A stretch of 64,000 bases of DNA from an uncultured Thermoleophilia bacterium (GTDB lineage: Bacteria > Actinomycetota > Thermoleophilia > UBA2241), in contig CAWHUW010000005.1 in the NCBI GenBank assembly GCA_963832655.1, positions 257,156-321,155 on the forward strand, read 5' to 3'. Each line of letters begins with the position of its first letter. Positions within the stretch are counted from its first letter, which is position 1. Under the pieces are notes generated by a model, which saw nothing but the letters and a program-made list of their open reading frames with translations, was not told the DNA's origin and did not search any database. The position numbers and the translations under genes are program-made. Below, piece after piece: positions 13,538-64,000 of the stretch.

Positions 13538-13556
13538 CAGGCCCGAGGAGACGACG

Positions 13557-22958: not shown

Positions 22959-23075
22959 GCGTATCCATAAGAGGCGACACTAGGAGAACCGTCTAGGCGC
23001 AGGCTGCGCCGGCAGGGACGGCGGCGAGCTCGCGGGCCTCGCGCCGCGCCGGGAGGCGCCGCGCGCCCGAAGCGG

Positions 23076-35314: not shown

Positions 35315-35392
35315 GGCTTCTCCTGTGAGCGTGACCTGCGAAGCATACCCACGGCGGCGGCGGCGCAAGCGGGGCGATGCTACGATGCCCGC

Positions 35393-36337: not shown

Positions 36338-36465
36338 CCGCGCGTTGCCGCTCATCCGGCGGGAACGCGACGCGGCTATACTTCTGCCGTCGCGGCGAAC
36401 CCTCGCCGCGGGCCGGGCGTCCCTCTCCCTGGAGGAAGGAAATCGACGAGCTGCCGGTCGGTCTC

Positions 36466-36981
36466 GTGGACCGGATGCGCCGGGCGCAGCCCGAGGCGCG
36501 CGCGGAGTTCTTTCGCCGCTACGCGCCGCAGGTGCGCCGCATCCTCTTCCTCCAAGGACTCTGCGACGAGGTGGACGACGCCGTGCAAGAGGTGTTCATC
36601 AAGGTGTTCCGGGCGGACCTGCCCGGCGAGGAGCGCTTTCTCGCCTGGTTCTACCGCCTCATCCTCAACGCGGGGCGCGACCAGGGCCGGCGGCGCAAGA
36701 CGCGTCGCGGGCTGGCGGAGCGCCTCGAGGGACTGGCGCCCGCGGAGCGCGCGCAGGCCGAGCCGTCCGCTCTCGGTGATCCGGCGCTGCGACGGGCGCT
36801 GGATGGGCTCGCGCCCGACTTCCGCGAGGCGGTCGCGCTGCGCTTCTTCGCCGACCTGTCGCTGGAGAGCATCGCGGCCGCGCAGGACGTGCCGCTGGGC
36901 ACCGTGAAGTCACGCCTGCACGGAGCGCTCGCGCGCCTGCGGCAGGCACTCGCCGAGGCCGGCTACGAGCGCGAGAGATGA
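36466..36981 (+). CDS. ECF-type RNA polymerase sigma-70 factor.
   Basis: Region 2 (FFRRYAPQVRRILF, VQEVFIKVFR) and region 4 (FREAVALRFFADLSLESIAAAQDVPLGTVKSRLHGAL). The start codon is uncertain (GTG 36466 or ATG 36475). Confidence 0.7.
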   Translation: MDRMRRAQPEARAEFFRRYAPQVRRILFLQGLCDEVDDAVQEVFIKVFRADLPGEERFLAWFYRLILNAGRDQGRRRKTRRGLAERLEGLAPAERAQAEPSALGDPALRRALDGLAPDFREAVALRFFADLSLESIAAAQDVPLGTVKSRLHGALARLRQALAEAGYERER

Positions 36982-38006: not shown

Positions 38007-38775
38007 GTGGCTGGCCTGCTTGCCGGCAAGAACATCCTCGTGATGGGCGCCGCCAACCGGCGGTCGATCGCCTGGTCCGCGGCCGAGGCGATCCACCGCG
38101 AGGGCGGCGCCGTCGCGCTCACCTACCAGGCCGAGCGACTCAAGGGCCGCGTCGAGCGCCTCAGCCGCCGAGCTCGGCGGCGCGCCGCTGATCGAGTGCG
38201 ACGTGGCCAGCGACGCGGCAGTGCGCGCCGCCGTCGACGACCTCGCCGAACGCATGCCCGTGCTCCACGGCATCGTGCACAGCATCGCCTGGGCGCCCGC
38301 CGAGGACCTGCAAGGCGAGTTCGTCGACACGTCGCGCGACGGGTTCGCCGCCGCCAACGACATCAGCTCGTACTCGCTCATCGCCGTGGCGCGGGAGGCC
38401 CGACGACTCATGACCCAGGGCGGCGCGATCGTGACCATGACGTACGCCGGCTCGTGGCGCGTGATCCCGAACTACAACGTCATGGGCCCGGCCAAGGCGA
38501 GCCTCGAGAGCTCGGTGCGCTATCTGGCCGCGGATCTCGGGCCGGCCGGCGTCCGCGTGAACGCGGTCTCGGCCGGCCCCATCGCGACCGTCGCCGCGCG
38601 CACGATCAAGGACTTCAGCGGCATGCTCGACCTGCTCGAGAGCCACACGCCGCTGCGGCGTAACGTCACTGCCGGTGAGGTCGCCGACGCCACGGTGTTC
38701 CTGCTCAGCGACCTGTCGCGCGCGATCACCGGCGAGGTCGTGCACGTCGACGCCGGCGCGCACGCGGTGACGTGA
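38007..38775 (+). CDS. fabI: Enoyl-[acyl-carrier-protein] reductase (NADH). There is a frameshift near ~38165.
   Basis: VAGLLAGKNILVMGAANRRSIAW (GAAxxxSIA motif), YAGSWRVIPNYNVMGPAKASLE (Tyr-x6-Lys region), GGGAGGG SD. Confidence 0.8.
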
Positions 38776-39279: not shown

Positions 39280-40807
39280 ATGGCAGAAGAACCGAAGAGA
39301 CTCAAGTACTTCATGAACGGCGAGTGGCATACGTCGAAGACCGACAAGTACATGCCGGTCGACGACTCGAGCACCGGAGAGGTGATCGCCGAGGCGCCGT
39401 GCTGCACCAAGGACGAGGTGGAAGAGGCCATCCAGAACGCGCAGTGGGCGTTCGAGACCTGGGGGCGTCTGCCGATCCAGAAGCGCACCCAGGTCATCTT
39501 CAACTGGAAGCGCCTGCTCGAGCAGCACGCCGAGGAGATCACCTACCTCTGCTCGCGCGAGCTCGGCAAGAACCTCGACGAGGCCCGCGGCGAGGTCATC
39601 AAGATCATCGAGGGCTGCGAGACCGCCGTCTCCGCCCCAATGGTCCTGAAGGGCGAGTCGCTCATGAACGTGTCCACCGGGCACGACACGGTGAGCTACC
39701 GCGAGCCGCTCGGCGTGTTCGCCGGCATCGCGCCCTTCAACTTCCCGGCGATGATCCCGTTCGGCTGGATGCTCCCGCTGTGCATCGTCAGCGGTAACAC
39801 GTTCGTCCTCAAGCTGGCCAGCATGGTGCCGACCACCGGCATGCGCCTGACCGAGCTTCTGCACGAGGCCGGGCTGCCGGCCGGCGTCGTCAACGTGCGT
39901 CACCTGCAGCCGCAACGAGGCAGAGCTGCTCATGACGCACCCGCTGGTCCGCGGCGTGAGCTTCGTCGGCTCGACCAAGGTCGGCCTGCACGTCTACTCG
40001 ATGGCCGCCGCCCACGGCAAGCGCGTCCAGGCCCAGACCGAGGCCAAGAACCACGGTCTCGTACTCGCCGACGCCTCGCTCGAGCGCGCCGCCGCCGGCA
40101 TCATCAACTCGACCTTCGGCTGCGCCGGCATGCGCTGTATGGCGCTGCCGGTCATCGTGGTCGAGAACAAGGTCGCCGACGAGTTCATCGGCTACATGGT
40201 CAAGTACGCCAAGGAGCGCGTCGTCGGCTGCTCCTACGACCCCAAGACCGAGCTCGGCCCGGTCGTGTCGGCCGACCATGCAGGCCTTCGTCAAGGGCTG
40301 GATCGACAAGGGCGTCGAAGAGGGCGCCGACCTGCTCCTCGACGGCCGCGACCTCGTCGTCCCGGGCTTCGAGGGCGGGCACTTCGTCGGCCCGACGATC
40401 TTCGACAACGTGACCGAGGACATGGAAGTCGGCCGCGAAGAGATCTTCGGCCCGGTGTGCTGCATCAAGCGCGTCGAGGACTTCGAAGAGGGCATCACCA
40501 TCATGAACGACAGCCGCTTCGCCAACGGCTCGTGCATCTTCACCGAGAGCGGCTACTACTCGCGCGAGTTCGCCCGCCGCACGCACGCCGGCATGGTCGG
40601 CATCAACGTCGGCATCCCGGTGCCGGTGAGCTTCTTCCCGTTCGCCGGTCACAAGCAGTCGTTCTTCGGCGAGAGCCACGTCTTCGGGCTCGACGGCTTC
40701 CGCTTCTACACCGAGTCCAAGTGCGTCACCTCGCGCTGGTTCACCGAGGCGGAGAAGAAGGAGACCAAGGTCGGCACCTGGGAAGGTACCGTCAACAAGC
40801 AGTGGTG
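39280..40807 (+). CDS. mmsA: CoA-acylating methylmalonate-semialdehyde dehydrogenase. There are 2 frameshifts.
   Basis: KYFMNGEWHTSKTDKYMPVDDSSTGEVIAEAP..., catalytic FGCAGMRCMA, and C-terminus ...FFGESHVFGLDGFRFYTESKCVTSRW. The pieces are in ORFs 39280.., 39932.. and 40278..40808. Confidence 0.8.
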
Positions 40808-47782: not shown

Positions 47783-47935
47783 CCTGCGCAGTATGCGTGC
47801 TGCTCGCCGACGTCACAAGGCGCGCGTCCCGCCAGGCCGGGCGGCGGGCGATCGGGCGGGCCGCGCCGACACGACGCGGCGCCGACGTGAGATGCGCCGC
47901 CTCATGTCACGGCACCCGCCGGTATACTCCCGCCG

Positions 47936-48643
47936 ATGAGCCCCGGACCCGCACAGACCCTCCTTGACCTGCGCGAGGCTGAGCTGTTCGCGCGCCTCGA
48001 CGGGGACGAGCTGGCCAGAGTGGCGGCGCTCGCCCGCCCGTTGGAGCTGCCGGGCGAGCGCCTGCTCTTCCTGCAGGGCGACGAGGCGGCGGCCTTCTAC
48101 ATCCTCGCCGCCGGCCAGGTCAAAGTCTTCAAGATGCTGCGTGACGGACGCTCGGCGACGATCCGTCACGTCCGGCCTGGTCAGTCCTTCGCCGAGGCGG
48201 CGCTCTTTCGCGAGACGTACCCGTCGAGCGCCGAGACCCTGGCCGCCAGCCGGCTCTACAGGTTCGACACCAACGAGTTCCGCAAGTTGCTGCTCGCCGA
48301 GCCGCAGCTCGCCGTCAGCCTGCTGGCCGCGATGGCCGAGCTGCTCGGCCTGCTCAATCGCCGCGTCGAGGAGTTGCTGCTCCCCGTGCCGGCCCGCCTG
48401 GCGCGCTACCTGCTGGCGCTCGCCGAGGCCCAGCTCGCACCTCCCTCGCAGGACGGCGGGCCGAGGGTCGTGCATCTGCCGACGACCAAGCGCGAGCTCG
48501 CCGCGCGCCTCGGCACCGTCCCCGAGACGCTCAGCCGTACCTTCGACCGCTTCAAGCGCGCCAAGATCATCCGCATGAGCAGCGGCCACGAGCTCATCGA
48601 GATCCTCGACTTCGGCGCCCTGCGTCGCCTGGCACAGGAGTAG
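47936..48643 (+). CDS. Crp/Fnr-family transcriptional regulator (no FNR Cys cluster, no obvious CooA heme ligands).
   Basis: cNMP-binding-like domain (FLQGDEAAAFYILAAGQVKVFK) and C-terminal HTH (TKRELAARLGTVPETLSRTFDRFK). Confidence 0.8.
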   Translation: MSPGPAQTLLDLREAELFARLDGDELARVAALARPLELPGERLLFLQGDEAAAFYILAAGQVKVFKMLRDGRSATIRHVRPGQSFAEAALFRETYPSSAETLAASRLYRFDTNEFRKLLLAEPQLAVSLLAAMAELLGLLNRRVEELLLPVPARLARYLLALAEAQLAPPSQDGGPRVVHLPTTKRELAARLGTVPETLSRTFDRFKRAKIIRMSSGHELIEILDFGALRRLAQE

Positions 48644-48772
48644 GGCGACCGCAAGGCACGCACCGGGCGGCCGACGCGGCCGTGCCTTCGCCAGGCGACG
48701 CGGCTCGCTCATGCTCCTCGCCGCGCAGCCGAGGAGTACCATGATGCGCACAACGGACCCCGGGGGTGGACG

Positions 48773-49741
48773 ATGGCACGCGAACCTCTCACTCGCGCTG
48801 ACTTCCTCAAGATCCTGGCCGCCGGCGCCGGCGGCGTCGTGTTCTTCCGCGGGGCCGAGGACGCGCTCGCCGGCATCGCCGGCGCACACGACGACATCGA
48901 CCAGGCTGCTCTCAGCGGCGACCTCGCGGCGGCCCTCGCTTACCCCCACATGACCGTCGTCAAGGGTACCCCGATCGGCACGAACGTGAGGACGGCCATC
49001 GCGAAGCTCGGCGGCATGCGCCGCTTCGTCGCCGCCGGCGCCGACGTGATCATCAAGCCCAACATCTGCACCGCGCGCACGCCGGGGTACGCGGCGACCA
49101 CCAACCCCACCGTCGTCGCGACGCTCGTGCGCCTGGCGCTCGGCGCGGGAGCGAGCCGGGTCCGGGTCATGGACAACCCGATCTCGGTGGCCCCGCTCGG
49201 CGCCTACACCACCAGCGGGATCAAGAGCGCCGTGGAGAAGGCCGGGGGGGCCATGCAGATCATGAGCGGCACCCGCTATCGGGACTACTACGTCGGCGGC
49301 CTCCTCGGCTACCACCCGCTCTACAGCGACATGCTCGCCTGCGACGTCCTCATCAACGTGCCGGTCGCCAAAGTGCACGGGGCCACCGGCCTCACGCTCG
49401 CCGGCAAGAACATGATGGGCGCCACGAACGACCGCGGGGCGATGCACACCAAGGGACTCAGCAGGAGCATCGCCGAGATCAACCGCAAGCTGAAGCCGGA
49501 CCTCACGGTCATCGACGCCATCCGGATCCTCGTCGCGCACGGCCCGACCGGCGGCAACCTGTCCGACGTGCGCCGCAAGGACACCGTCATCGCCTCCAAG
49601 GACTGGGTGGCGGCCGACGCGTACGCGACGCGGCTGTTCGGCAGGACGCCCCGCTACGTCCCCTACATCGCGGCCGCGCACCGCATGGGCCTCGGGGAGA
49701 ACGACCTGTCGAAACTGACCATCCGGAAGTACTGGGTCTGA
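48773..49741 (+). CDS. DUF362 family protein with a Tat-like N-terminus.
   Basis: LTRADFLKILAAGAGG followed by VIIKPNICTAR...AATTNPTVVATLVRLALGAG, typical of DUF362. Confidence 0.55.
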   Translation: MAREPLTRADFLKILAAGAGGVVFFRGAEDALAGIAGAHDDIDQAALSGDLAAALAYPHMTVVKGTPIGTNVRTAIAKLGGMRRFVAAGADVIIKPNICTARTPGYAATTNPTVVATLVRLALGAGASRVRVMDNPISVAPLGAYTTSGIKSAVEKAGGAMQIMSGTRYRDYYVGGLLGYHPLYSDMLACDVLINVPVAKVHGATGLTLAGKNMMGATNDRGAMHTKGLSRSIAEINRKLKPDLTVIDAIRILVAHGPTGGNLSDVRRKDTVIASKDWVAADAYATRLFGRTPRYVPYIAAAHRMGLGENDLSKLTIRKYWV

Positions 49742-49748
49742 GCGAGCC

Positions 49749-51383
49749 GTGAGGGACGAGGCCGAGGCGGTGCGCCGGTCGACGGGCGGCTGGAAGGCCG
49801 CCCGCTGGGCCCGGCGCGCCACCCAGATCGCCGCGTTCGCCGTCTTCGTGTACCTGCTGTTCGCGGGGCTGCAGCGCCTCGAGCCGCTGCCCTACGCGAA
49901 CATCTTCTTCCGCTTCGACCCGCTGGCGGCGTTCGCGACCATGCTGGCCGCCCGCGTCTGGATGCCGGACTTCGCTCTCGCGCTCGTCACGCTGGCGCTG
50001 GCCGTCGTCGTGGGCCGCGTCTGGTGTGGCTGGATCTGCCCGCTGGGCAGCCTGCTCGGGTGGCTCCGGTTCCGCTCCGCGCCGCGGCGGGCCGGGCGTG
50101 TGCCCCCGGCCCTGCGGCGCGTCAAGTACGTGCTCCTCGGCGCCGTCGTCGTGCTCGCCGCCCTCACCGGCCTCACCCTTCTCGTACTCGACCCTGTCGC
50201 CCTGCTCACGCGCACCGCGACGACGTCGCTCATCCCCGGCGCCGTCTTCATCGTCGACAGTCTCGAGGAGGCAGGGATGCGCTGGGAGCCGACGGTCGGC
50301 GCCGTGACGTGGGTCGAGGACCACTTCCGCGGCAACGTCCTCCCGACGATCCAGCCGCGGTACGGGCAGGCGGTCCTGCTCTTCCTGGTCCTGCTCGCGG
50401 TGATCCTTCTCAACGCCTTCGCGCACCGCTTCTGGTGCCGGTACCTGTGCCCGCTCGGAGCGCTGCTCGGCCTGGTCGCCAAGGTGCAGGTGCTGCGCCC
50501 CGTCGTCGGCGACGCCTGCGACCGCTGCGGCGCCTGCGCTCGCGCCTGCGGCGTCGACGCCATCGAACTGGCGTCGGACGGCGGCGCCGTGGCGCCGGCT
50601 GCCGACTCGCCGAACGGCGGCACCGCCCGCGTCGTCACCTCGGAGTGCACGATGTGTCTCGACTGCCTCGTCGCCTGTCCCCGACCCGGCGCCATGAGCT
50701 TCGGCGTGGCGCGGCGGCCCGGGCCGTGGGCGCCGTACGATCCGGGGCGCCGCGAGGTCGTCATCGCGGCGGCGGCCGGCGTGGGAGCCGCGGTGCTCTT
50801 CGGCACCGGCGTCGCGCGCGCCGTGCCGCGCCCGGGCCTGATCCGCCCGCCGGGCGCCCAGGACGAGGCGCGCTTCCTCTCCCGCTGTCTGCGCTGCAGC
50901 GAGTGCATGAAGGTCTGCCCCACGTCCGGCCTGCAGCCGACGCTCGCCGAGGCCGGCCTCGAGGGGCTCTGGACCCCCGTCCTCAAGTCGCGCCTCGGCT
51001 ACTGCGACTACGCCTGCACCGCCTGCGGACACGTCTGCCCGTCCGGCGCCATCCCGAAGCTGGGCCTCGAGGAGAAGCGCGTGCAGGTCCTCGGCGTCGC
51101 CGTCATCGACCGCGACCGCTGCCTGCCGTGGGCGTCGGACACACCCTGCATCGTCTGCCAGGAGATGTGCCCCGTCCCCGACAAGGCCATCGAGCTCGTC
51201 GGGCAGCACCTGGTCACCCGCCCCGACGGCTCGCAGGACTACCTCTCGCGGCCGAAGGTCATCGCCGACCGCTGCATAGGCTGCGGTATCTGCGAGTACA
51301 AGTGCCCGCTCGAGGGGACTTCGGCGATCGTGGTCCTGCCGTCGAACCCCGACCTCGCCGGCGGCACGGTGCCTCTCGGCTGA
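49749..51383 (+). CDS. NapH/MauN/CcoG-like membrane polyferredoxin (4 TM helices and four [4Fe-4S]-type Cys motifs).
   Basis: Two CGWICPLG / CRYLCPLG motifs plus CDRCGACARAC, CTMCLDCLVACP, CLRCSECMKVCP, CTACGHVCP and CIGCGICEYKCP. Confidence 0.7.
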   Translation: MRDEAEAVRRSTGGWKAARWARRATQIAAFAVFVYLLFAGLQRLEPLPYANIFFRFDPLAAFATMLAARVWMPDFALALVTLALAVVVGRVWCGWICPLGSLLGWLRFRSAPRRAGRVPPALRRVKYVLLGAVVVLAALTGLTLLVLDPVALLTRTATTSLIPGAVFIVDSLEEAGMRWEPTVGAVTWVEDHFRGNVLPTIQPRYGQAVLLFLVLLAVILLNAFAHRFWCRYLCPLGALLGLVAKVQVLRPVVGDACDRCGACARACGVDAIELASDGGAVAPAADSPNGGTARVVTSECTMCLDCLVACPRPGAMSFGVARRPGPWAPYDPGRREVVIAAAAGVGAAVLFGTGVARAVPRPGLIRPPGAQDEARFLSRCLRCSECMKVCPTSGLQPTLAEAGLEGLWTPVLKSRLGYCDYACTACGHVCPSGAIPKLGLEEKRVQVLGVAVIDRDRCLPWASDTPCIVCQEMCPVPDKAIELVGQHLVTRPDGSQDYLSRPKVIADRCIGCGICEYKCPLEGTSAIVVLPSNPDLAGGTVPLG

Positions 51384-51444
51384 GACGGCGGGAGGAGGCG
51401 GCGAGCGCGGCGCACCGCCTGAGCGGCGGCCGAAGGCGCTGCGA

Positions 51445-52338
51445 TCAGCGGTACCCGGCCGCCCGGAACAGCTCCGGCAGCGAGACGGGCTGTAAATTGC
51501 GCGCCCGGAGCCCCCGCAGGATCGCGGGGAGCGCCGACGCGGTCCGTCGCTTGATGTGGAGCAGAACGATGGATCCGGGTCGCACGTTGCGGAGCACACG
51601 CCGCGTGATGACTGCGGCGCGCGGCGAACGCCAGTCCTCGGGATCGACGTCCCAGAGAACGAGGCGTGTGAAGCCGACCGCGCCGGCGACGCGGCGCATC
51701 CGTCGGTCGTACCTGCCGTAGGGCGGTCGAAGGTAGGGCGCCGGCGTCGCGCGCGCGGCCGTCCACCACGGCCGGCTGCTTCGCGCCAGCTCACGGCGCA
51801 TCTGTGCGGTCGTCAAGCCCGTCATCACCGCGTGCGACCAGCCGTGGGAACCCACGGCGTGCCCCTCCGCGAGCGTACGACGCGCCAGCTCCGGGTTGGC
51901 GCTCACGTAGGGCCCGAGGACGAAGAACGTCGCGCGGACCCCCCATGCCTTGAGCGTCCGCAGGATCCGCCTCCACGGGCCGGCGGCGCCGTCGTCGAAC
52001 GTCAGCGCGACGCGCCTTCCTGCGCCGTCGATGCGACGCCATGCCTGGGCGATCGTGGCGCCGGATCCGTCGCCCGCAGCCGCCCGAGCCACCTCGGCGT
52101 TGGCGCGGCGCGACCCAGGCCCGGCGCTTGCGGCGACGGCCGACGATGACGTTGGGCCGTCGGACGGCGCTGGTGGCGACGGTGTGAAGGGCGAGACGAC
52201 AGCCGCGGATGGGCTCGCGACAGCCTCCCGACGTGCGTCCGCGCCGACGGGCGCGCCGGCCATGCTCGTCGTCAACAGGAAACCGCCAAGGGCGAGCGCG
52301 GCCAGGACGACGGCGATGAGGATGGCGTTTCGCTGCAC
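51445..52338 (-). CDS. Polysaccharide deacetylase (NodB homology domain), secreted.
   Basis: Signal peptide; VALTFDDG (TFDDG motif); HGWSHAVM. Confidence 0.7.
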   Translation of the reverse strand: MQRNAILIAVVLAALALGGFLLTTSMAGAPVGADARREAVASPSAAVVSPFTPSPPAPSDGPTSSSAVAASAGPGSRRANAEVARAAAGDGSGATIAQAWRRIDGAGRRVALTFDDGAAGPWRRILRTLKAWGVRATFFVLGPYVSANPELARRTLAEGHAVGSHGWSHAVMTGLTTAQMRRELARSSRPWWTAARATPAPYLRPPYGRYDRRMRRVAGAVGFTRLVLWDVDPEDWRSPRAAVITRRVLRNVRPGSIVLLHIKRRTASALPAILRGLRARNLQPVSLPELFRAAGYR

Positions 52339-52655
52339 GGGTGCCTCCCGGACGCCGGGTCGTCTGCCCGGCAGGCGCGATCGACGCGCGACGTCGGGAC
52401 TGTGTTCGCACGCGACGTCTCACGACCTTCCCGTGGGCCGACGTCCGGGGGCAGCGCGCGACCTCCGCGTCCTCGCGGTTGACCCAGGTCAATGCACCGA
52501 CGGCCCGGTGCCGGTACAGTAACCACCACGGCGGCAGTGTTTACTGCGCCGTGACCCACCAAACCGACACACCCGGCCGCCGGCGCTCGCGCGACGATCC
52601 CCCGTCGTGACAACGGCTTCGGCGGCGGCAGATCCGGAAAGAGGTCACATAGCCA

Positions 52656-53036
52656 TGGCAGTCCGCAACATCGTGAAGATCGACGAGGAGCTCTGCAACG
52701 GGTGCGGTCTCTGCGTCACCCCGTGCGCCGAAGGCGCGATCGAGATGGTCGACGGCAAGGCCAAGGTCGTCAAGGACGAGCTCTGCGACGGCGCCGGCTT
52801 CTGCCTCGCAGTGTGCCCGACCGGCGCCCTCACCGTCGAGGAGCGCGAGGCGCCGGCGTTCGACGAGGAAGCCGCCGCCGAGCGCGTCGCCGAGAAGCTC
52901 GCCGCCGCCGTCGCCATCCAGCAGAACTGCTTCAACTGCGGCCGCAGCGAGATGGACGCCGTCCTCTTCCCCTGCCGCAACAAGGGCGCAAGCACCTGGG
53001 TGTGCGTCAAGTGCCTGCCCGCCCTCATCCACGGTT
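52656..53036 (+). CDS. Ferredoxin-like protein with one canonical and one atypical Cys motif plus a Cys-rich C-terminal tail.
   Basis: [11 protein letters not shown] (CxxCxxCxxxC), [12 protein letters not shown] (C-x5-C-x3-CP), then NCFNCG...FPC...WVCVKC. Confidence 0.65.
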
Positions 53037-53086
53037 GACCGGCGCCCTCGGCGCCTGAACGTTCCCAACTCTCCCAGGAGGAGTCC

Positions 53087-54952
53087 ATGGCCGACAGTTA
53101 CCACGCATCAGTCCACACGATGCTCGAAGAAGCCCGGGAGCAGGGCGAGGACACGGCGTTCGACCGCATGGACGCCATGGGCCGCCGCTGCACCTTCTGC
53201 GAGCAGGGCATCCGCTGCTCGCTGTGTTCGCAGGGTCCCTGCCGCATCACCGAGAAGGCGCCGCGTGGCGTCTGCGGGATCGACGCCGACGGCATGGCGA
53301 TGCGCAACTTCCTGCTGCAGAACACGATGGGCACCGCCACCTACACCTACCACGCGACCGAGGTGATGAAGACCCTCCGCGAGGCGAAGCCCGGCGGCAC
53401 CTACGAGATCAAGGACTGGAGCAAGCTCGAGACGCTCGCCTCCGTGGTCGGCGAGCCCGCCGAGCCCAGGGACACGTTGCCCAAGCGGGTCGCCGACGCG
53501 ATCCTCGCCGAGTTCAACCGCGACCACCAGAGCCCCTCGCCCTTCGTCGAGAAGATGGCGCCGGCTCCGCGCGTGGCCAAGTGGAAGGAGCTCGGCATCA
53601 TGCCGGGCGGCATCTTCCACGAGAGCATGTTCGCGACCTCGAGCTGTCTCACCAACGTCGACGGCAACTACGTGAGTCTCGCCCTCAAGGCCCTCCGCCT
53701 CGGGATCGCCACCGCCTACGGCGCGCAGATCCCGCTCGAGCTCGCCCAGGACGCGCTCTGGGGCACGCCGACGCCGCACCCCATCAAGGTCGACCTCGGC
53801 ATCATCGACCCCGCCTACGTCAACATCGTCGTCAACGGCCACGAGCCCATGGTCGGCGCCGCCCTGATCGCCGCGGCCCACGAGCCGGCGGCTCAGGAGA
53901 AGGCGAAGGCCGCCGGCGCCAAGGGCCTGCGCATCGTCGGCTCGATCGAGACCGGCCAGGAGCTCGTCCAGCGCTTCGAGGTCGACGACGTCTTCGTCGG
54001 ACTCACCGGCAACTGGCTCACCGAGGAGCTCGCCGTCGCGACCGGCGGCCTCGACGTGTTCGCCGCCGACATGAACTGTACCGTGCCGACCCTCGGCGCC
54101 ACCTGCGCCGCCCACGGCACGCTCCTCGTGCCCGTCAGCGACCTCGTCGGCATCGACGGCGCCGAGACGCCGATCGTCTTCGACCCGGCCAAGGCCGGCG
54201 ATCAGGCGAAGCAGCTCATCGAGCTGGCCGTAGCCAACTTCCCCAAGAGGAAGGCCCTCGGCCAGACCACCCCCGCGCTGCGCACGGGCGACGCCGTCGC
54301 CGGTTTCAGCACCGAGAGCATCCTCGGCGCCCTCGGCGGCAGCCTCGACCCGCTGCTCGACGTCATCAAGAACGGCACCCTCAAGGGCGTCTGCGGCCTC
54401 GTCAGCTGTACCACGCTGCGCGACTCGGACCAGGACAGCCACACGGTCGCGATCGCCAAGGAGCTCATCAAGAACGACGTCCTCGTACTGGCCATGGGTT
54501 GCGGCAACGCCGCCCTGCAGGTCGCCGGTCTCGAGGCCGCCGAGGCCAAGGAGATGGCCGGCCCCGGCCTCAAGGCGGTCTGCGAACTGCTCGGCATCCC
54601 GCCGGTCCTGAGCTTCGGCACCTGCACCGATACGGGCCGCATCTTGCTGCTCGTCGGCGCCATCGCCGACGCCCTCGGCGTCGACGTCCCGGCGTTGCCC
54701 GTCGTGGCTACGGCACCCGAGTACATGGAGCAGAAGGCGACCATCGACGCCATGGCGGCGCTGGCCTTCGGCCTGTACGTGCATGTGAACCCGGTGCCGT
54801 TCGTCACCGGCGCGCCGAACCTCGTCAAGCTGGTGACCCAGGACCTCCCGGGCGTCACCGGCGGCAAGCTCGACGTCGAGACCGACGCCAAGAAGGCCGT
54901 GGCGAACATGATGGCGTGGATAGCGGACAAGCGCCAGGCACTCGGGATTTGA
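53087..54952 (+). CDS. CooS-family (anaerobic Ni-CO dehydrogenase catalytic subunit) homolog. It has a CxxC-type D-cluster motif, and the CooS Cys-Cys pair containing Cys295 aligns to Ile-Glu.
   Basis: 621 aa, collinear from my memory of the CODH-II sequence: CTFCEQGIRCSLCSQGPCRI, GVCGIDADG (B-cluster Cys), NIVVNGHEP (His261 equivalent), DMNCTVPT (Cys333), GVCGLVSCTT (Cys446), AMGCGNAAL (Cys476), FGTCTDTG (Cys526), EQKA (Lys563). GICCTGNE in CODH-II aligns to GSIETGQE. Confidence 0.75.
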   Translation: MADSYHASVHTMLEEAREQGEDTAFDRMDAMGRRCTFCEQGIRCSLCSQGPCRITEKAPRGVCGIDADGMAMRNFLLQNTMGTATYTYHATEVMKTLREAKPGGTYEIKDWSKLETLASVVGEPAEPRDTLPKRVADAILAEFNRDHQSPSPFVEKMAPAPRVAKWKELGIMPGGIFHESMFATSSCLTNVDGNYVSLALKALRLGIATAYGAQIPLELAQDALWGTPTPHPIKVDLGIIDPAYVNIVVNGHEPMVGAALIAAAHEPAAQEKAKAAGAKGLRIVGSIETGQELVQRFEVDDVFVGLTGNWLTEELAVATGGLDVFAADMNCTVPTLGATCAAHGTLLVPVSDLVGIDGAETPIVFDPAKAGDQAKQLIELAVANFPKRKALGQTTPALRTGDAVAGFSTESILGALGGSLDPLLDVIKNGTLKGVCGLVSCTTLRDSDQDSHTVAIAKELIKNDVLVLAMGCGNAALQVAGLEAAEAKEMAGPGLKAVCELLGIPPVLSFGTCTDTGRILLLVGAIADALGVDVPALPVVATAPEYMEQKATIDAMAALAFGLYVHVNPVPFVTGAPNLVKLVTQDLPGVTGGKLDVETDAKKAVANMMAWIADKRQALGI

Positions 54953-55088
54953 CGGACGCCTGGCGCTCAGAGCTGTCGAGCGTTGCGGCGAAGCGTCACT
55001 GCTCCTGCGGAGAGAAGCGAGCCGCGCTGGGCATCTGATCGCGGAGCATGCGACGCCGCTGGCTGCGGCGTCGTCACACAACAGAACG

Positions 55089-55118
55089 CGACGGGGCGGG
55101 CCTCACGACCCGCCCCGT
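55089..55118. terminator. Bidirectional GC-rich hairpin between the cooS-like gene and the convergent small membrane gene.
   Basis: gacggggcggg-cctcacga-cccgccccgtc. Confidence 0.45.
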
Positions 55119-55129
55119 CGCCCGTTCAC

Positions 55130-55426
55130 CTACCCGGCGATGAGGGCGGTCGCGATCGCGCCGACGTAGATCCCCACGCAGCCGGCGGCGAGCCGCGCGG
55201 CCGCACTGGACGAGTCGGCAGTGTGCCCGTAGTCGTCGAGGCTCCTGACGGCGATCGGGTTGCCAAGGTTGACACCCAAGGCGAGGGCCCCCGCGATCAC
55301 GAGACCGATGCCGGCGATGGAGACATCGACGGTCCACACACCCTCGGCCTCTCCAAGGACGGCGGCCACCGTCGCGATGACGGCCGCAAGCGCAAGGCCG
55401 CCGCAGAGCCAGCGGAGGAGCGTCAC
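55130..55426 (-). CDS. Small integral membrane protein (98 aa, 3 TM).
   Basis: Hydrophobic, Gly/Ala-rich; ORF only. Confidence 0.4.
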   Translation of the reverse strand: MTLLRWLCGGLALAAVIATVAAVLGEAEGVWTVDVSIAGIGLVIAGALALGVNLGNPIAVRSLDDYGHTADSSSAAARLAAGCVGIYVGAIATALIAG

Positions 55427-55451
55427 GACCCCGTCCTCTTCTGCCCTGCGC

Positions 55452-56564
55452 TCACGGCACGTTCCAGATGCGCGTACCGACGTGGACCCGGGCGTAGAGC
55501 CAGAGGACGTTCTTGTTCGCCAGCCGCGTGCATCCGTGAGAGTAGGCGCGCGGGAAGCGGGTCAGGAGCCACGGCTCGTTGGTCCCGTGGATCGCATAGG
55601 CGCCCAGGTAGCGCATGCGGCGCGGCCCGTAGGGACCGCCGACCCAGTCGTCCTTGGCGTAGATGCGGAAGCCGCCCTGCGGCGTCGGCGTCGACGGCTT
55701 GCCCAGCACGCAGTCGAAGACGCGCACCACGCGCCCGTACTCGTGGTAGTAGAGCTTGTACTGCGACTTGTCCACGACGACGAAGTGAGCCTCGCGTCTG
55801 GACACGCCGTACGGGTTGGGATCCTTGACGAGGACGACCTCCTCGGGGCCGGCGCCGGCGACGTGATCGGCGTCGGCGGTCATCGCCAGGCGAAAGCGGA
55901 CGTATCCGCGCTCGTCACTGACCCAGCGGAAGAACACTCGGGACTCGTCGTTGAGCGTCACGGTCCGCCATCGGGTCCAAACGCCGTCGACGCGCCGCTG
56001 CACGTCGATCGCCGAGCCCGGATGGGCCGGCTCCACCTGCGCCGTGAACGCGACCTTCCACCCCTGGTACACGGAGCTTGTCGCGGTCATCGAGAGGCGC
56101 GGCCGGACCGAGACCGTCGTCTCGGCGGAGGCCGCGCTCCAGACCGCGTCGCCGGCGAACTCCACGCGATACGTCGCCGTCCGTCGCGGGCTCACAGTCC
56201 ACGACGCAGCGCCCACGACATCGGTCACGACCGTTTGCACGAGCGAATAGACCGCCGGCCCGGTGCCGCGCGAGACCGTCAGGACCGCGCCCGGGACGCC
56301 GAGTTGCGCGGTGAGGGTCGTCGTGCGCCCGGCGGTGATCGAGGATCGCGCCGCGCTGAGGGTGAGGGCAGGTGACGCGACGTCGCCCGCGGACGGCAGC
56401 TCGGCAGCACGTACCGGAGCCGGGCCGCAGACCGCGCCGACGACCATCGCCCCGCAGGCGATGACGCACGCCCGGACGAGGATGGCGCGAGCTGCCGACC
56501 CTGGATGAACGTGCACGACGACCCCTTTCTCCGGCCGGCGATCGCCGGCGGCGTTCGTCATGAC
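55452..56564 (-). CDS. L,D-transpeptidase (YkuD domain) with an N-terminal signal peptide and Ig-like domains.
   Basis: C-terminal YkuD motifs GAYAIHGTNEPW and SHGCTRL. Confidence 0.7.
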   Translation of the reverse strand, partial: VMTNAAGDRRPEKGVVVHVHPGSAARAILVRACVIACGAMVVGAVCGPAPVRAAELPSAGDVASPALTLSAARSSITAGRTTTLTAQLGVPGAVLTVSRGTGPAVYSLVQTVVTDVVGAASWTVSPRRTATYRVEFAGDAVWSAASAETTVSVRPRLSMTATSSVYQGWKVAFTAQVEPAHPGSAIDVQRRVDGVWTRWRTVTLNDESRVFFRWVSDERGYVRFRLAMTADADHVAGAGPEEVVLVKDPNPYGVSRREAHFVVVDKSQYKLYYHEYGRVVRVFDCVLGKPSTPTPQGGFRIYAKDDWVGGPYGPRRMRYLGAYAIHGTNEPWLLTRFPRAYSHGCTRLANKNVLWLYARVHVGTRIWNVP

Positions 56565-56642
56565 GATTCTCAGCCGGCGTGCGGATTCCTCGGTGGGCCA
56601 CGGGACACCCCCGGCGACGCGAGCCGGTGATAGCCTTGTCCC

Positions 56643-58967: not shown

Positions 58968-59134
58968 ACGAACCCGGCGACTCGCGCGTCATACGTTCCG
59001 ATGGGTGCCGTCCGCGCGCCGTCCTCCGGCTGCGACGACGTTTCGCAGGCGAGTCTGGACGTGTGCGTGGAACGGCATAGTATGAGCGACAGATGACGGC
59101 CGCCCGGCCGTCGGAGGGGAAGGAGATGGGGTCC

Positions 59135-61565
59135 ATGAGCACATGCACGAGTCGCAGGCGCGTCCCCGCGCGCGCGGCGATCCTGGCAGCCCTGGCAGTC
59201 GTCGTCCTGCTGGTCTTCGCGACATCGGCGGTCGCCGCGCCCACGGAGCCGACGCTCACGGTCGACGAGTTGCGCGCCAAGCTCGAGAGCGGACCGCTCG
59301 ACGGCTACCTCAAGACCGTCGTCAAGGGCTACACCATCGAGAAGATCCCAGTCACGGTCCAGGACATCGTCGAGCTGTCCTGGGGCAACCTGATCCTCGC
59401 CGAGGCGAGCGGTCCGGTGATCGACCAGCTCGGCAGCATCGCCTCCGGCATGAGCGGCAGCCCCGTCTTCGTCGACGACGGCGGGGTCGACAAGCTCGTC
59501 GGCGCCCTGTCGTACGGGAGCGACTTCACCATCGGCGGCACGTTCATGGCGACGCCGATCCAGTACATGTCGGCGATCGAGGCCGACTACGTCAAGCCGC
59601 CGGCGGCGGGCACGTACAAGCTGGCGGAGCCCGTGCAGACCGATGGCGGCCGCATCGACAGCGTCGTCATCGCCCGCGGCGTCAAGGCGGCGACGCAGAT
59701 CGACGCCAGGGCGGGTCAGCTCGTCATGGCCCCGCTCGGACTCATCGAGATCGGCGGCCTCGCGCCCCAGACCCGCGCCTACAAGGAGCTCGCCGCGAGG
59801 CTCGAGAAGCAGACCGGACTCCCGGTGGTGGCCGCGAGCGGCGGCTCCCTGGCGCCGCCCGAGGCGCCGCCCCTCGAAGGCGGCTCGTCGATCTTCCAGC
59901 TCTTCTCGCAGGGCGCCGTCTGGTACGGCTCGGCGGGGACGGCGACGTACGTCAACGGCGACGTCGTGGTCGCCTACGGCCACCCCGCCTGGTGGACCGG
60001 CCCCTGCGGCGCCGCCATGGCCGGCGGCTACGTGAGCGGCATATGGCCCAGCCAGTGGGCGCCGTTCAAGCTCATGGCCCCGCGCGACATCAAGGGCACC
60101 ATCGTCCAGGACCGCAACTGGGGGATCGCCGGCATCGTCGGCCAGGACCCCGAGATGGTCTCGGTCACCTCGACGGTGACCTTCCCCGAGCAGGGTGACC
60201 GCGTCGTCTCGACCACGTCGACCGCTGCGGAATGGGCGTTCAGGACCGACGGCTACCAGGACCTGGCCGGTTACCTGATCATGCAGGCGCTGTGGGATGC
60301 GTGTGACGTGTCCTTCATGCCCGGCAGCGCCGAGACGACGACGACCGTCCACGTCTCCGACGAGACCGGCCCCTATGTCGTCACGATCGACAACACGTGG
60401 GATTCCTTCGACATCACCTTCGAACCGGTCTTCGACGTCATGGACGCCCTCTGGGCCCTCGGTTCCGACCCGGACGGCGTGCTCGACGTGCGCCTCGACT
60501 CGGTCGACTTCCAGGCGACCATCTCCACGGCACGCAAGTCCGGTCGCCTCGTCGACATCGCGCTGCCGAACGGCCTCAAGACCGGCGACAACATCGTGAG
60601 GCTCAGCTACTACGGGTACGGCTCGCGCGAGCTGAAGACGCAGGATGTGACGCTGACGCTCCCCGCGGGGATGCCGGTGAACGGCGACATCGAAGTCATG
60701 CCGGCGAACTGGTCCTCCTGGGAGGACGGCATGGAGGGCGATGTCGCGGTCGCCGATCCGTCCGCGCCGGCCACCCTCGCCGAGATCGTCGACGCTCTCA
60801 ACAGCCGGCCGAAGAACACCGACCTGATCGTGACCTTCTACCCCCGCGAGGAGGGTGGCGGTCCGGAGCCGATGGGAGAGCAGAGCAGACCCACGGCGAG
60901 GGTCGGCGAACCCTCCGGCGGCGACGCCTCGAATCTCGAGCCCGTCGAGGTGACGGTGTCCACAGCCTGGGTGTTCCAGGACATGCTGGGCATCTCGACC
61001 ATCCCGGTCACGCTCGACGCCATGCCGGCGCGGGTCGACCTCGGTGAACCGGTCATGCTCAGCGGCACGGTCCAGGGTATCGCCGCCGACGTGCCGGTCT
61101 CGATCTTCAGGGTCGACGCCGCGACCGGCAAGGAGACCCTCGTCGACACGGTGACGGCCGCCTACTCGGAGGGCATGGCCTGGTTCGAAGCGACGGCAAG
61201 GCCGACAGCTGCACAACACGACCTTCGTCGCCCGCGTCGGGGAGCTCGAGGGCTGGCTGCCCGGCAGCGCCGAGGACACGGTCAAGGTGCGCGCCGAGGT
61301 CCGCCTGGCGACGGTCGGTGGAGGGCCGGCGCGTCCTTCTGGCGCCCATGGTTCGGCCGTCCGACACCGGCGGCAAGGTCGCCGTGCAGCGCTATGTCGG
61401 CGGAAGCTGGCGGACCGTGGCGACCCTCACGCTGAACTCGTCGGGCAGCGCCGTGAAGGTGTGGACCGCGCCCGGCGCCGGCACCTACCGCTTCCGGGCC
61501 AAGTTCCTCGGCAGCGCGCTCAACGCCGCCGGCACTTCCGCAGTCGCGCGCGTGGTCGTGCGCTG
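59135..61565 (+). CDS. Secreted S55 (SpoIVB-like) serine peptidase family protein with C-terminal Ig-like/beta domains. There are frameshifts near ~61200-61300.
   Basis: Signal peptide (AAILAALAVVVLLVFATSAVAAPT); GSIASGMSGSPVFV resembles the SpoIVB catalytic Ser motif. The C-terminal segment is in ORF 61318..61566. Confidence 0.45.
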
Positions 61566-61748
61566 ACGGAGGCGACGCCTGAGGCCGGGGACCTCGAACC
61601 CCGGATGAGACGCCGGGGGCGGGCCTTGCGGCCCGCCCCCGGCGTCTCCGCGAGCGGCCAAACGGCGCCGGCCTTGCTCAAAGTCAATGCTGAGGCATGA
61701 TCCCACCATGTGGAATGGAGTATCGAGTCATCGTCCTGGGGGTGCTGA

Positions 61749-63564
61749 ATGAAGCGGTCCGTCCTGCTCGCGAGCCTGGTTCTCGCGAATCTGTCTGCTC
61801 TGGGCGCCCGGGGTCGCCCTCGCGCTCACGCAGCAGCAGTGCCTCACCTGCCACACCGAGATCACGCCGGGCATCGTGACCCAATACCAGTCGGGCGCCA
61901 TGGGCGACGACGTCGCCTGCCTCGACTGCCACGGCGACGACCACAGCGTCATCACCGCCACCGAGGGCAAGGTCCCGGCCGGGAAGTGCGCCGGTTGCCA
62001 CCCCGACCAGTACGCGGAGTTCACCGTCAAGGACGCGACCGGGTCGTACATCAACAAGCACGCGCAGGGCTGGACGCGAATGCTCGCCGGCGCCCGCTAC
62101 AAGGTCATGCCCGAGGCCGAGCGCTACGAGATGTGCGAGCGCTGCCACAACATCGGCTACACCTACGTGGACGGCTCGGTCGGCAAGTGCGACTCGTGCC
62201 ACACGCGGCACGTCTTCTCTGCCGAAGAGGCGAGAGAGCCGGCCGCCTGTGGCACCTGCCACATGGGCCCCGACCACGAGCAGATCGACATGTGGGAGAA
62301 GAGCAAGCACGGCGTCGTCTACATGACCGAGAAGGAGCGCCCCGGCGGCGATCCCGGACGAGCGCCGACCTGCGTCACCTGCCACCAGCCTGAGATGGTG
62401 AACGGTGCCGGCCAGCCGCTGACGCACAACGTGTCGACCAACCTGACGTACGGCACCGTCGCCCAGGGCGCCCGCCTCGTCGGGACGCCACTGTCGGTGC
62501 CGATGCGCACGATGACCGAGTCCGAGTTCTCCTCCCGGCGGGCGAACATGCTCGGAGTCTGTGGCGACTGCCACTCCTCGACGTGGGCGCGCAAGAACCT
62601 CGAGCTCGCCGACCAGATCAAGATGGACGTCGACGAGCTGCTCTGGGACCCGGTCATGCGCATCCGCGGCCTCTGGTACGACGGCCTGCTCGACCCGATG
62701 CCCGAGAACCGGCCGCCGAACCCGGTGTACGCCGCCGCCGGACCCAACTTCGTCAACGGCGGCTACGTGCTCGTCCTCGGCGGCCAGCAGCTCTACAGCG
62801 ACACGTCGGCGATCGAGCAGTGGCTCTTCTACACCTACAAGTACGACCACGTGAACACGTTCAAGGGCGCCTACCACATCAACCCCGACTACAGCCACTG
62901 GTTCGGCTGGTCGGAGGTCAACCAGGACATCGGGATGATCAGGGGCGAGGAGGCCTCGCTGCGCCGCGGTGAGGACCCGGGTTTCGCGGCCAGCCCGACG
63001 CGGCCCGTGGTCGGACAGCCGACGACGTTCGACGCGAGTGCCCTCGCGGCGTGGGGCGACGCGAGCGCCAACGTGTATGCGTGGACCTTCGGCGACAAGG
63101 CGTCTGCTGCTGCCGCGGCCGAGACGAGCGTCGCCCATACCTACGCCGCCCCCGGCCGCTACACGGTGCAGCTCACCTGCTCCGACGGCGACCTCGTCAA
63201 CAACGTGCTTCAGCCGCTGAGCTGCTCCGGGAAGCGCACGAGCAGCCTGCGAACACAAGCCAAGTACGGCGCCACGTTCGGGCTCTACGAGATCGCTCGC
63301 GTGAAGAAGGGCAAGCAGGTCACCATCAAGGGGTCGCTCAAGACCGACGACTCCAACGCCGCCCTCGTCCAGCTCTGGGAGAAGGTCGGCTCGGGATCGT
63401 GGAAGATGGTCAGCTCCAAGACGGTCGCCACGACGGCCGGCGTGTCCCTGACCGTGTCCTTCAAGCGCACGCTGAACTCCAAGACGTCCTTCAAGCTGAC
63501 CTACGTCGGCGACGCCGACACGTGGGACGTGACCACCAAGACGCGGACCATCTCACCGCTCTGA
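61749..63564 (+). CDS. Octaheme c-type cytochrome (HAO / octaheme nitrite reductase-like heme arrangement) with a C-terminal PKD-like domain and beta-rich tail. There is a frameshift near ~61800.
   Basis: Signal peptide MKRSVLLASLVLANLSAL. Eight CxxCH motifs: CLTCH, CLDCH, CAGCH, CERCH, CDSCH, CGTCH, CVTCH, CGDCH. PKD-like VYAWTFGDKASAAAAAETSVAHTYAAPGRYTVQLTCSDGD. Confidence 0.7.
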
Positions 63565-63613
63565 CGAAGCGGCCGGTCGTCGTGCAGGACGCACGGCGAC
63601 CGGCGCAAGACGC

Positions 63614-63657
63614 GAACGGCCGGGCGACGGGCCCCAGGGCCCGTCGCCCGGCCGTTC
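63614..63657 (+). terminator. GC-rich hairpin after the octaheme cytochrome gene.
   Basis: gaacggccgggcgacgggccc-cagg-gcccgtcgcccggccgttc, a perfect inverted repeat. Confidence 0.55.
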
Positions 63658-63912
63658 GCACATGGGCCGGCTCAGACCCTCGTCACTCGAAGAAGCACGC
63701 CAGCGCCAGGCCGACGATCATGAGCGCGATCGAGAGCGTCGCGAAGAGGGCGATGCAGCAGGCTGAGTTGAGACGCGGCAGCGCGTGCTTCATGGGCTCC
63801 TCCAAACGAGTGTGCCCCTCCACTTGCATGGTACCACCGGAGGGCCCTGTTTGGACGGTTCACGCGAGTTTCGCCGGGGTAGGCTGCGCGCGGAGATACC
63901 GCGAGGAGGAAA

Positions 63913-64000
63913 GGTGAAGGCACCGTATGGTTCGTGGCGATCGCCCGTCGACGCGCGGCGGATCGCCGAGGGCGGGATCGGCCTCGCCTGGCCGCAGGCC
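63913..64000 (+). CDS. N-terminus of an S9-family (prolyl oligopeptidase / acylaminoacyl-peptidase-like) peptidase, 3'-truncated by the window end.
   Basis: VKAPYGSWRSPVDARRIAEGGIGLAW resembles the S9 N-terminal beta-propeller start. Confidence 0.35.

Follow-up and report, generated by a model that had tools for sequence, protein, structure and literature searches.

A putative cross-link-free octaheme cytochrome of the HAO family with PKD and Ig-like domains in an uncultured Thermoleophilia bacterium

What would a cytochrome of the hydroxylamine oxidoreductase (HAO) family do in an uncultured member of the Thermoleophilia (Actinomycetota), and is its gene intact? The question is raised by a 64,000-nucleotide stretch of contig CAWHUW010000005.1 (hereafter the window), in which an earlier note, made from the letters alone, had pointed to an HAO-like octaheme c-type cytochrome with a PKD-like domain. 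Inspection of the open reading frames (ORFs) assigned positions 61749-63564 (+) to the gene for a secreted protein, which has 604 residues after repair of one frame break. It consists of a signal peptide, an octaheme core, a PKD domain and a C-terminal immunoglobulin (Ig)-like domain. An invariant histidine occupies the column of the tyrosine that defines the oxidative enzymes of the family, and we propose a cross-link-free HAO that is most likely reductive toward nitrite, NO or hydroxylamine, a reading to which we give somewhat better than an even chance.

The octaheme core belongs to the HAO family

The repaired protein has eight CxxCH motifs in one frame, spanning residues 31-275 (Cys31 to His275) in a 3+3+1+1 grouping behind the signal peptide, just as the earlier note had described. 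Third-position GC reaches 0.94 in the heme frame, the window as a whole having 70% GC; such a value is usual for real genes here, and the cytochrome is the sole CxxCH-bearing ORF among the high-GC3 ORFs of the window.

The HAO-family core comprises residues 26-405 (61825-62964; all parts of the gene lie on the forward strand). It matches PF13447 over the full length of the model (positions 2-269 of 269) with 96.8 bits against a cutoff of 21.9 (E 1.8e-27). Structural relatives were all of one kind: the eight significant matches in a single-sequence search of PDB sequences are HAO-family proteins. A family profile built from 43 members and run against the same sequences gave as best solved relative Kustc0458, the HAOr of Kuenenia stuttgartiensis (PDB 6H5L), with E 6.8e-67 and 229.5 bits over profile positions 30-404. 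It was followed by two HOX-type entries (~1e-53, 184-188 bits), the HAO of N. europaea (NeHAO; ~1e-46, 160-163 bits), hydrazine dehydrogenase (HDH; 8e-44, 153 bits) and the octaheme cytochrome IhOCC (2.5e-41, 145 bits). The next matches, NrfA and the octaheme nitrite reductases (ONR), reached at most 26 bits in partial alignments (E 1e-5 to 1e-3). The motifs of hemes 2-8 find their counterparts in all solved HAOs, with a good match in NeHAO. For heme 1 the alignment holds in Kustc0458, HOX and HDH but is weak in NeHAO.

Other models stayed far below their cutoffs, including the DmsE-family decaheme model (31.6 bits against 192), the NrfH model (19 against 134) and the hydrazine dehydrogenase equivalog NF052343 (83.1 against 900). 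Altogether, membership of the HAO family is secure. The octaheme identity that the earlier note had proposed thus holds, with PF13447 matched in full and HAO-type structures at the top of the profile search, and the unrelated families that it had named as the competing assignment (MtrA/DmsE decaheme or NrfA) do not apply, given the DmsE score and the marginal, partial NrfA/ONR matches.

The individual motifs lie as follows. In the first group, heme 1 CLTCH (61840-61854) is invariant in the family alignment, which also contains heme 2 CLDCH (61918-61932) and heme 3 CAGCH (61987-62001). The remaining motifs align with those of the solved enzymes: heme 4 CERCH (62134-62148) aligns with the catalytic heme of HAOs; heme 5 CDSCH (62188-62202) belongs to the CHTRH block common to all solved HAOs; and heme 6 CGTCH (62248-62262), heme 7 CVTCH (62371-62385) and heme 8 CGDCH (62560-62574) follow. 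In most clade members at 60-65% identity (P0014, P0018, P0019, P0035 and others; P numbers denote relative proteins), heme 3 reads CAQAGCH, a CX4CH form with a two-residue insertion inside the motif.

A histidine occupies the cross-link tyrosine column

In oxidative HAOs, the P460 cofactor is made by a tyrosine that forms a cross-link with the catalytic heme of the neighboring subunit. For comparison at this site, the C-terminal segments of NeHAO, KsHOX and Kustc0458 were taken from HMMER output and aligned with 16 family members by MAFFT L-INS-i. The segments read AHVNPGGWTYTEGW in NeHAO, AHMSMYNQTYGNGS in KsHOX, AHAQQ-DVSWWWGQ in Kustc0458 and YHINP-DYSHWFGW in the window protein. The column of NeHAO Tyr467 and KsHOX Tyr451 holds His383 in the window protein (62896-62898; motif AYHINPDYSHWFGW) and Trp in Kustc0458. 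In KsHOX this is number 415 of the chain, taken as Tyr451 on the assumption that a 36-residue signal peptide precedes the chain. Pairwise profile alignments differ by up to two residues, with NeHAO leading to His383 and KsHOX to Phe385. None of His383, Trp384 and Phe385 is a tyrosine, and the column is flanked by Ser382 and Trp384. The nearest tyrosine is Tyr381, two residues upstream of the column. Together with His383 it forms a Y-x-H motif (62890-62898) that is invariant in all 46 aligned relatives, distant ones included; position 385 varies across the clade (F/Y/H/N/L/K/E). By both profile alignment and MAFFT, the cross-link tyrosine that defines the oxidative P460 enzymes HAO, HOX and HDH is absent, which settles the check that the earlier note had suggested.

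Other parts of the active site are retained. Asp175-His176 in the motif GPDH (62272-62277) aligns with the distal pair Asp267-His268 of NeHAO (chain numbering) and is invariant in 46 relatives. Moreover, the family alignment contains seven invariant non-motif histidines and a near-invariant eighth, a pattern compatible with, though no proof of, the seven bis-His hemes, five-coordinate heme 4 and homotrimer of the family. An invariant histidine in the tyrosine column suggests that the protein is a cross-link-free, reductive-type HAO.

The C-terminal part contains a PKD domain and an Ig-like domain

The heme-free C-terminal part has 329 residues and is not a single extra module. Residues ~276-405 belong to the helical HAO core, which is aligned with all solved HAOs up to a conserved ...LRR. 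They are followed by a PKD domain at residues ~413-481 (62986-63192), matched by PKD_4 with 47.9 bits (cutoff 27, E 1.4e-12) and by PKD with 37.0 bits (cutoff 23.5, E 3.4e-9). Both the PKD domain and the last domain (residues ~495-604; 63232-63561, up to the stop codon at 63562-63564) are predicted by AlphaFold as β-sandwiches with pLDDT >90. The heme-free C-terminus of ~330 residues with a PKD fold described in the earlier note is therefore right in its length and its PKD domain, except that the first ~130 residues are part of the enzyme core.

The last domain is harder to place. A Pfam scan of the last 125 residues gave no domain, and a word-index homology search with the last 113 residues found nothing. 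An exhaustive HMMER search of 1.8 billion representatives matched 32 proteins, mostly giant, with 5-22 repeated stretches. Two of the giant proteins bear K319L-like PKD, Big_9 and cadherin-like repeats, one of them with an autotransporter domain, and a third bears Big_3_5. Because the last domain matches repeats of giant surface and autotransporter proteins, we regard it as a generic bacterial Ig-like surface module. A Foldseek search with the full AlphaFold model against the PDB returned tandem Ig-like proteins only; the heme domain is poorly modeled and the core was uninformative in this search.

Shorter relatives with 40-46% identity close with a transmembrane (TM) helix or with a tail that is either PGF-CTERM-like or of low complexity. 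Among them, P0064, P0066 and P0070 (Methanoperedens, Zixibacteria) have tails of the ...PGFEAALVFGLIVSLILVQKRK type, resembling archaeal PGF-CTERM sorting signals, and others have a TM helix. As the shorter relatives carry membrane anchors or sorting-like tails in the same place, the C-terminus of the clade most likely serves to retain the enzyme at the cell surface.

A frame break in the signal peptide

The ATG at 61749 starts MKRSVLLASLVLA, whereas the heme domain is read one base on, in an open frame from 61753 to the stop codon at 63562-63564. The start codon and first 13 codons of a Sec-type signal peptide (61749-61787) are the same as the N-terminus of the intact closest relative P0001, and the remainder of the signal peptide, ICLLWAPGVALA, lies in the heme-domain frame (61789-61824), as judged by inspection and conservation. 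Between them, the window reads GCGAATCTG with AA at 61788-61789, where the DNA alignment gives a single A in two related contigs (L numbers denote related contigs and loci): L001 reads GCGATCTG and L017 reads GGAGTCTC. The window thus has one extra A, in line with the indel near ~61800 that the earlier note had suspected of putting the signal peptide out of the heme frame. P0001, encoded on the ENA metagenome contig L001, is intact with 604 residues and 96% amino acid identity, and reads MKRSVLLASLVLAICLLWAPGAALALTQQQCLTCH at this place. Deletion of one A joins the signal peptide from ATG 61749 to the heme-domain frame, which gives the 604-residue protein. As assembled, no in-frame start with a signal peptide is available, the first start in the heme frame being GTG 61876, past heme 1.

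The repaired signal peptide is of a normal Sec type: an n-region with K-R precedes the hydrophobic core, and cleavage is predicted at A-L-A just ahead of heme 1. A lipoprotein signal was considered and rejected: the Cys in 'LAIC' varies among relatives and position -1 is Ile.

Besides the extra A, the cytochrome gene has no indel against L001 over 1.8 kb, and its dN/dS is 0.18, compared to 0.31-0.36 for two neighboring genes. The upstream gene carries two further private 1-nt insertions at 61207 and 61313 (against L001 and L019), 480-580 bp upstream, and at least five other window genes are split or shortened relative to Pfam models. For instance, etfA falls into two frames, the N-terminus of AhpC is missing, an aldehyde dehydrogenase ends at model position 188 of 461, MurB is present as its C-terminal domain run into a sigma-factor ORF, and an enoyl-ACP reductase begins at model position 35 (split or truncated genes at 13530-14718, 29311-29628, 35377-36978, 38044-38772 and 39280-40410). 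The window looks like an indel-rich assembly. Because so many other genes are split and the upstream gene carries private insertions, the extra A is most likely an assembly error and the gene itself probably intact. We rejected programmed +1 frameshifting, since neither of the two close relatives compared needs it to read through and the sequence holds no known shift site.

Genomic neighborhood

The cytochrome gene is bracketed by two GC-rich hairpins. The first, with a 19-bp stem (61607-61648, +), follows the upstream gene and is the likely 5' limit of the transcription unit, with an RNA fold z-score of -5.0 over 61560-61680. The second, a perfect 22-bp hairpin at 63612-63659 between the cytochrome gene and a convergent small ORF, resembles a terminator that lacks a T tract; the RNA fold of 63560-63670 has -89.7 kcal/mol and z = -9.5. 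Rfam, scanned over 61300-64000, matched the two hairpins with miRNA-type families below threshold and gave no known RNA element, and a sigma-70 promoter scan gave nothing. The gene looks monocistronic and would form a stand-alone transcription unit. Downstream in the window are the convergent 48-residue ORF (63683-63829, -), whose product is hydrophobic and Cys-rich (...NSACCIALFATLSIALMIVGLALACFFE), and the start of an S9 peptidase gene. The small ORF is also called at the matching position in two relatives (L001 8630-8776, L021 11902-12012).

On the upstream side, a Crp/Fnr regulator is followed by a DUF362 protein, a fused NapH+NapG-like polyferredoxin, a polysaccharide deacetylase (-), a CooF-like ferredoxin and CooS (53087-54952), and then by an L,D-transpeptidase (-), an RlmL/K-type rRNA methyltransferase and a secreted protein of ~800 residues (59093-61566, with two frameshifts). 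CooS ends at 54952, 6.8 kb upstream of the cytochrome with three unrelated genes between, a distance that agrees with the ~7 kb of the earlier note. It is a genuine anaerobic Ni-CO dehydrogenase, matched over the full length of TIGR01702 with 738 bits (cutoff 478); models of Hcp (hydroxylamine reductase) gave 36 and 31 bits on this gene against cutoffs of 361 and 367. The earlier note had taken it for an Hcp/CODH-superfamily neighbor hinting at hydroxylamine, NO or nitrite chemistry. As the gene is CooS and not Hcp, no such hint comes from it. The polyferredoxin of the CO dehydrogenase cluster (47891-54952) is a 544-residue fusion of NapH-like and NapG-like parts, unusual beside CooS, and might link CO oxidation to the quinone pool. 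In contig L001, which is 94% identical, 517 bp of unrelated sequence take the place of a 1.66-kb segment just downstream of CooS (54960-56622) that contains most of the L,D-transpeptidase gene (YkuD, -).

To place this order in context, we compared 22 related loci over their sequenced flanks, which extend up to 10 kb on each side. Wherever an upstream flank is available, it contains the RlmL-type gene ahead of the cytochrome. In the three loci with gene calls reaching far enough (L001, L021 and L022), an S9 peptidase follows, with amidase, radical-SAM and CoA-binding genes downstream. Heme-biosynthesis genes (HemY-like and ferrochelatase, with UroD in L021) lie 5-9 kb downstream in L021 (16818-20584) and L022 (19528-21809), a distance beyond the window end. 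CooS is found within 10 kb upstream in eight loci (the window and seven relatives) but not in the 10-kb flank of L004, L016 or L022, so the arrangement looks like a conserved chromosomal order rather than an operon. The 22 flanks are free of ORFs with two or more CxxCH motifs, and the window has no second coding ORF with CxxCH. WWD-motif heme-lyase genes of the CcsA/CcmF type were found neither in the window nor in any related locus, and Pfam scans of the window ORFs gave no amo- or hzs-type gene.

The ~800-residue neighbor is predicted by AlphaFold (pLDDT 85.5) as an N-terminal helix followed by a string of β-sandwiches like adhesin extender or macroglobulin-type domains. It has an invariant GMSGSP motif and a weak S55-peptidase match only, and no redox or enzyme fold was recognized. 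Its true C-terminus, a Big_3_5-like Ig domain, is a separate ORF at 61318-61566 in the window, and identity to L001 falls to 75-85% around 61223-61622. BLASTP found no similarity between this end and the C-terminal Ig-like domain of the cytochrome; the two proteins therefore have no common anchoring module. Homologs adjoin the cytochrome in at least nine loci, upstream in the window, L001, L003 and L021, and downstream in L006, L008, L013, L018 and L023. As a specific partner of the cytochrome the protein was set aside as improbable, because its family (>355 matches) is larger than the cytochrome family. Elsewhere in the window, three consecutive GAF-GGDEF diguanylate-cyclase genes of ~715-770 residues stand in tandem at 16521-22979 (-).

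Distribution and strain-level loss

A collection of 5.8 billion proteins contains ~60 clusters with the full HAO, PKD and Ig architecture at 57-96% identity. Some are labeled 'hydroxylamine dehydrogenase' (JGI) and one 'multiheme c-type cytochrome [Thermoleophilia bacterium]' (NCBI). A set of species-representative genomes gave 19 loci, 16 of them from metagenome-assembled genomes (MAGs) of Thermoleophilia. A literature search on Thermoleophilia or Actinobacteria with hao or octaheme cytochromes found no description of the clade, which has been seen almost only in uncultured soil Thermoleophilia.

One MAG, MFD00032.bin.2.201, contains the locus in two states. Its contig L017 bears the complete cytochrome gene and ends just upstream of it. 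In contig L019 of the same bin (9930-10110, corresponding to window 61680-63490), the upstream intergenic region is joined to the last ~78 nt of the gene, a 26-codon remnant. This difference points to strain-level presence and absence or to mixed binning. With the gene deleted in L019, the cytochrome is thus dispensable in at least some strains.

Proposed function and alternatives

The reductive assignment is made by homology with characterized enzymes that lack the tyrosine. Kustc0458 has no cross-link or P460 band, barely oxidizes NH2OH or N2H4, and reduces nitrite, NO and NH2OH (PMC8042395); four tyrosine-less epsilonproteobacterial Haos are likewise reductases in vitro (PMC8042395). We propose that the protein is exported by the Sec pathway as an octaheme cytochrome c, and that eight hemes would then be attached to the eight CxxCH motifs by maturation genes encoded outside the window. 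By homology, seven of them would be bis-His electron-transfer hemes, and heme 4 (CERCH) the five-coordinate catalytic heme, over which Asp175-His176 would transfer protons. The enzyme would draw on the respiratory chain for electrons to reduce nitrite, NO and/or hydroxylamine outside the cytoplasmic membrane, in respiration or in detoxification. The PKD and Ig-like domains most likely hold or space the enzyme in the envelope of these Thermoleophilia (Actinomycetota), in place of the membrane anchors of the shorter relatives. In this scheme we infer the substrate, the direction of catalysis, the location, the role of the C-terminal domains and the electron donor.

Several observations weigh against the assignment. 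Identity to the closest characterized enzyme is low, Kustc0458 being recognized only by profile, and the ~60 clusters, nearly all from Thermoleophilia MAGs, include no characterized member. AlphaFold modeled the heme domain without hemes and poorly, with pLDDT ~30-60 over residues 147-231. The invariant His in the tyrosine column could itself ligate or modify the catalytic heme and alter its function. Electron-donor genes of the NrfH/NapC, diheme (Kustc0457-like) or c554 type are absent from the window and the 22 flanks, and ORF and Pfam scans of the window revealed no nitrite- or NO-related genes. Lastly, the frame break could be a genuine recent inactivating mutation; a related strain (contig L019) has lost the gene altogether.

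The main rival, to our judgment unlikely but to be taken seriously, is a general extracellular or periplasmic electron-transfer cytochrome that would sit tethered in the Gram-positive envelope and pass respiratory electrons to acceptors that are insoluble or large, such as Fe(III), humics or partner cells, with N-oxide activity as a side reaction. The PKD and Ig-like domains of surface type suit such a location, the adjoining gene encodes a multi-Ig-domain surface protein, the cytochrome gene is an orphan without N-cycle neighbors, and relatives occur in Methanoperedens, known for cytochrome-mediated extracellular electron transfer. A precedent is OcwA, the surface multiheme reductase of a Gram-positive bacterium, which accepts iron oxides, nitrite and hydroxylamine as substrates for reduction (PMC6703420). 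However, the Asp-His catalytic pair is strictly kept clade-wide and would be needless in a pure electron wire, and a single cytochrome gene is not the multi-cytochrome conduit typical of extracellular electron transfer. Doubtful as well is a true pseudogene in this strain, in which the extra A would abolish export and heme attachment while the locus is being lost. As assembled, the heme frame indeed has no signal-peptide start, GTG 61876 lying past heme 1; the neighboring gene has two more frameshifting insertions, and L019 has lost the gene but for its last ~78 nt. Yet neither a stop nor another indel interrupts the other 590 codons and dN/dS is 0.18, many unrelated window genes are also split, which argues for assembly indel errors, and contigs of related long-read MAGs are similarly fragmented, for example in the CooS gene of L021 and L023.

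The other alternatives range from improbable to very remote. At the improbable end, we consider a wall-tethered, partner-less HAO in which the invariant His would interact or bond with the catalytic heme of the neighboring subunit, forming a third kind of active site in a terminal reductase possibly fed by CooS, CooF and NapGH. If true, it would be the terminal reductase of a Gram-positive nitrite, NO or hydroxylamine (or extracellular) respiration. Coupling to the CO dehydrogenase cluster as such, with electrons of CooS passing via CooF and the NapH/NapG-like polyferredoxin to a surface reductase, appears highly improbable. The NapH/NapG-type module elsewhere links the quinol pool to periplasmic reductases, the cluster holds such a fusion, and CooS lies at most 10 kb upstream in the window and seven related loci; but unrelated genes (RlmL/K, RecQ, peptidases), some on the opposite strand, stand between, the cytochrome is bracketed by hairpins, three loci (L004, L016, L022) have no CooS in their 10-kb upstream flank, and the pattern looks like gene order conserved within one class. 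Least credible of all is an oxidative hydroxylamine or hydrazine oxidoreductase as in ammonia oxidizers or anammox bacteria. It would fit the protein family and the 'hydroxylamine dehydrogenase' source label of several relatives (JGI), but the cross-link tyrosine is absent, the HDH equivalog scores 83 bits against 900, and the nearest solved relative is the reductive Kustc0458. Nor is there a c554/cM552-type gene in the window or the sequenced flanks of relatives, or an amo or hzs gene in the Pfam scans of the window.

A reductive enzyme free of the cross-link, the reading that we prefer, would bear on the annotation of soil metagenomes. Under the automatic label 'hydroxylamine dehydrogenase (hao)', surveys can count genes of this clade as nitrification markers, whereas the lack of the cross-link tyrosine makes them much more likely reductases than nitrification enzymes. 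The practical value is modest and lies in better annotation. Should the clade prove active, abundant uncultured soil Actinomycetota would have on their surface a reductase of the HAO type, either for N-oxides or general. The enzyme family itself is known; new in it are the architecture of an HAO core with PKD and Ig-like domains, the short N-terminus, the His in the tyrosine column, the orphan gene and the host in the Thermoleophilia (Actinomycetota).

Comparison with known systems

The closest known system is Kustc0458, which matches the window protein at each of the eight heme motifs and at the Asp-His pair. No gap is needed to align the C-terminal motif (AHAQQDVSWWWGQ vs YHINPDYSHWFGW), and neither protein has a tyrosine in the cross-link column, where Kustc0458 has Trp and the window protein His. 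They differ at both ends: Kustc0458 has a ~75-residue N-terminal extension ahead of heme 1 and lacks the PKD and Ig domains, whereas heme 1 of the window protein comes right after the signal peptide. Moreover, Kustc0458 is encoded adjacent to its diheme partner Kustc0457, which has no counterpart by the window gene, and works in the anammoxosome of a Planctomycete, compared to a host of the Thermoleophilia (Actinomycetota).

The epsilonproteobacterial Hao, compared by description only, is also an octaheme enzyme of the family without the tyrosine, and in vitro it acts as a reductase of nitrite and hydroxylamine (Haase et al. 2017, summarized in PMC8042395 and PMC8940962). It is the template of the 'reverse-HURM' idea, a pathway that needs Hcp. 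The neighbor here is CooS and not Hcp, and the epsilonproteobacterial enzyme has no PKD or Ig fusion. The oxidative enzymes, NeHAO (PDB 1FGJ and 4FAS), KsHOX (K. stuttgartiensis, PDB 4N4J) and HDH (PDB 6HIF), share the fold family and the aligned Asp-His pair, but their Tyr467/Tyr451 is replaced by His383. Compared to them, the window protein has a shorter N-terminus, extra C-terminal domains and no partner cytochrome gene nearby. IhOCC of Ignicoccus hospitalis (PDB 4QO5) is another tyrosine-less octaheme cytochrome of the family from a non-nitrifier, aligned most strongly around hemes 5-7; however, it is archaeal, more distant (145 bits against 229 for Kustc0458) and without PKD and Ig domains.

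Nearer in sequence are uncharacterized HAO-like proteins of ~380-460 residues from Methanoperedens, Zixibacteria, Latescibacteria and Myxococcota (P0064, P0066, P0092 and P0100), with 40-46% core identity. They have the identical invariant Asp-His pair and Y-x-H motif, but where the window protein has its PKD and Ig-like domains they have a TM helix or a tail, either PGF-CTERM-like or of low complexity. Finally, OcwA of Thermincola potens resembles the window protein as a multiheme reductase on a Gram-positive surface, with a fold related to NrfA and HAO and activity toward nitrite and hydroxylamine (PMC6703420). It differs in being a nonaheme, dimeric protein of another family, not among the PDB matches, for which a part in metal reduction has been demonstrated.

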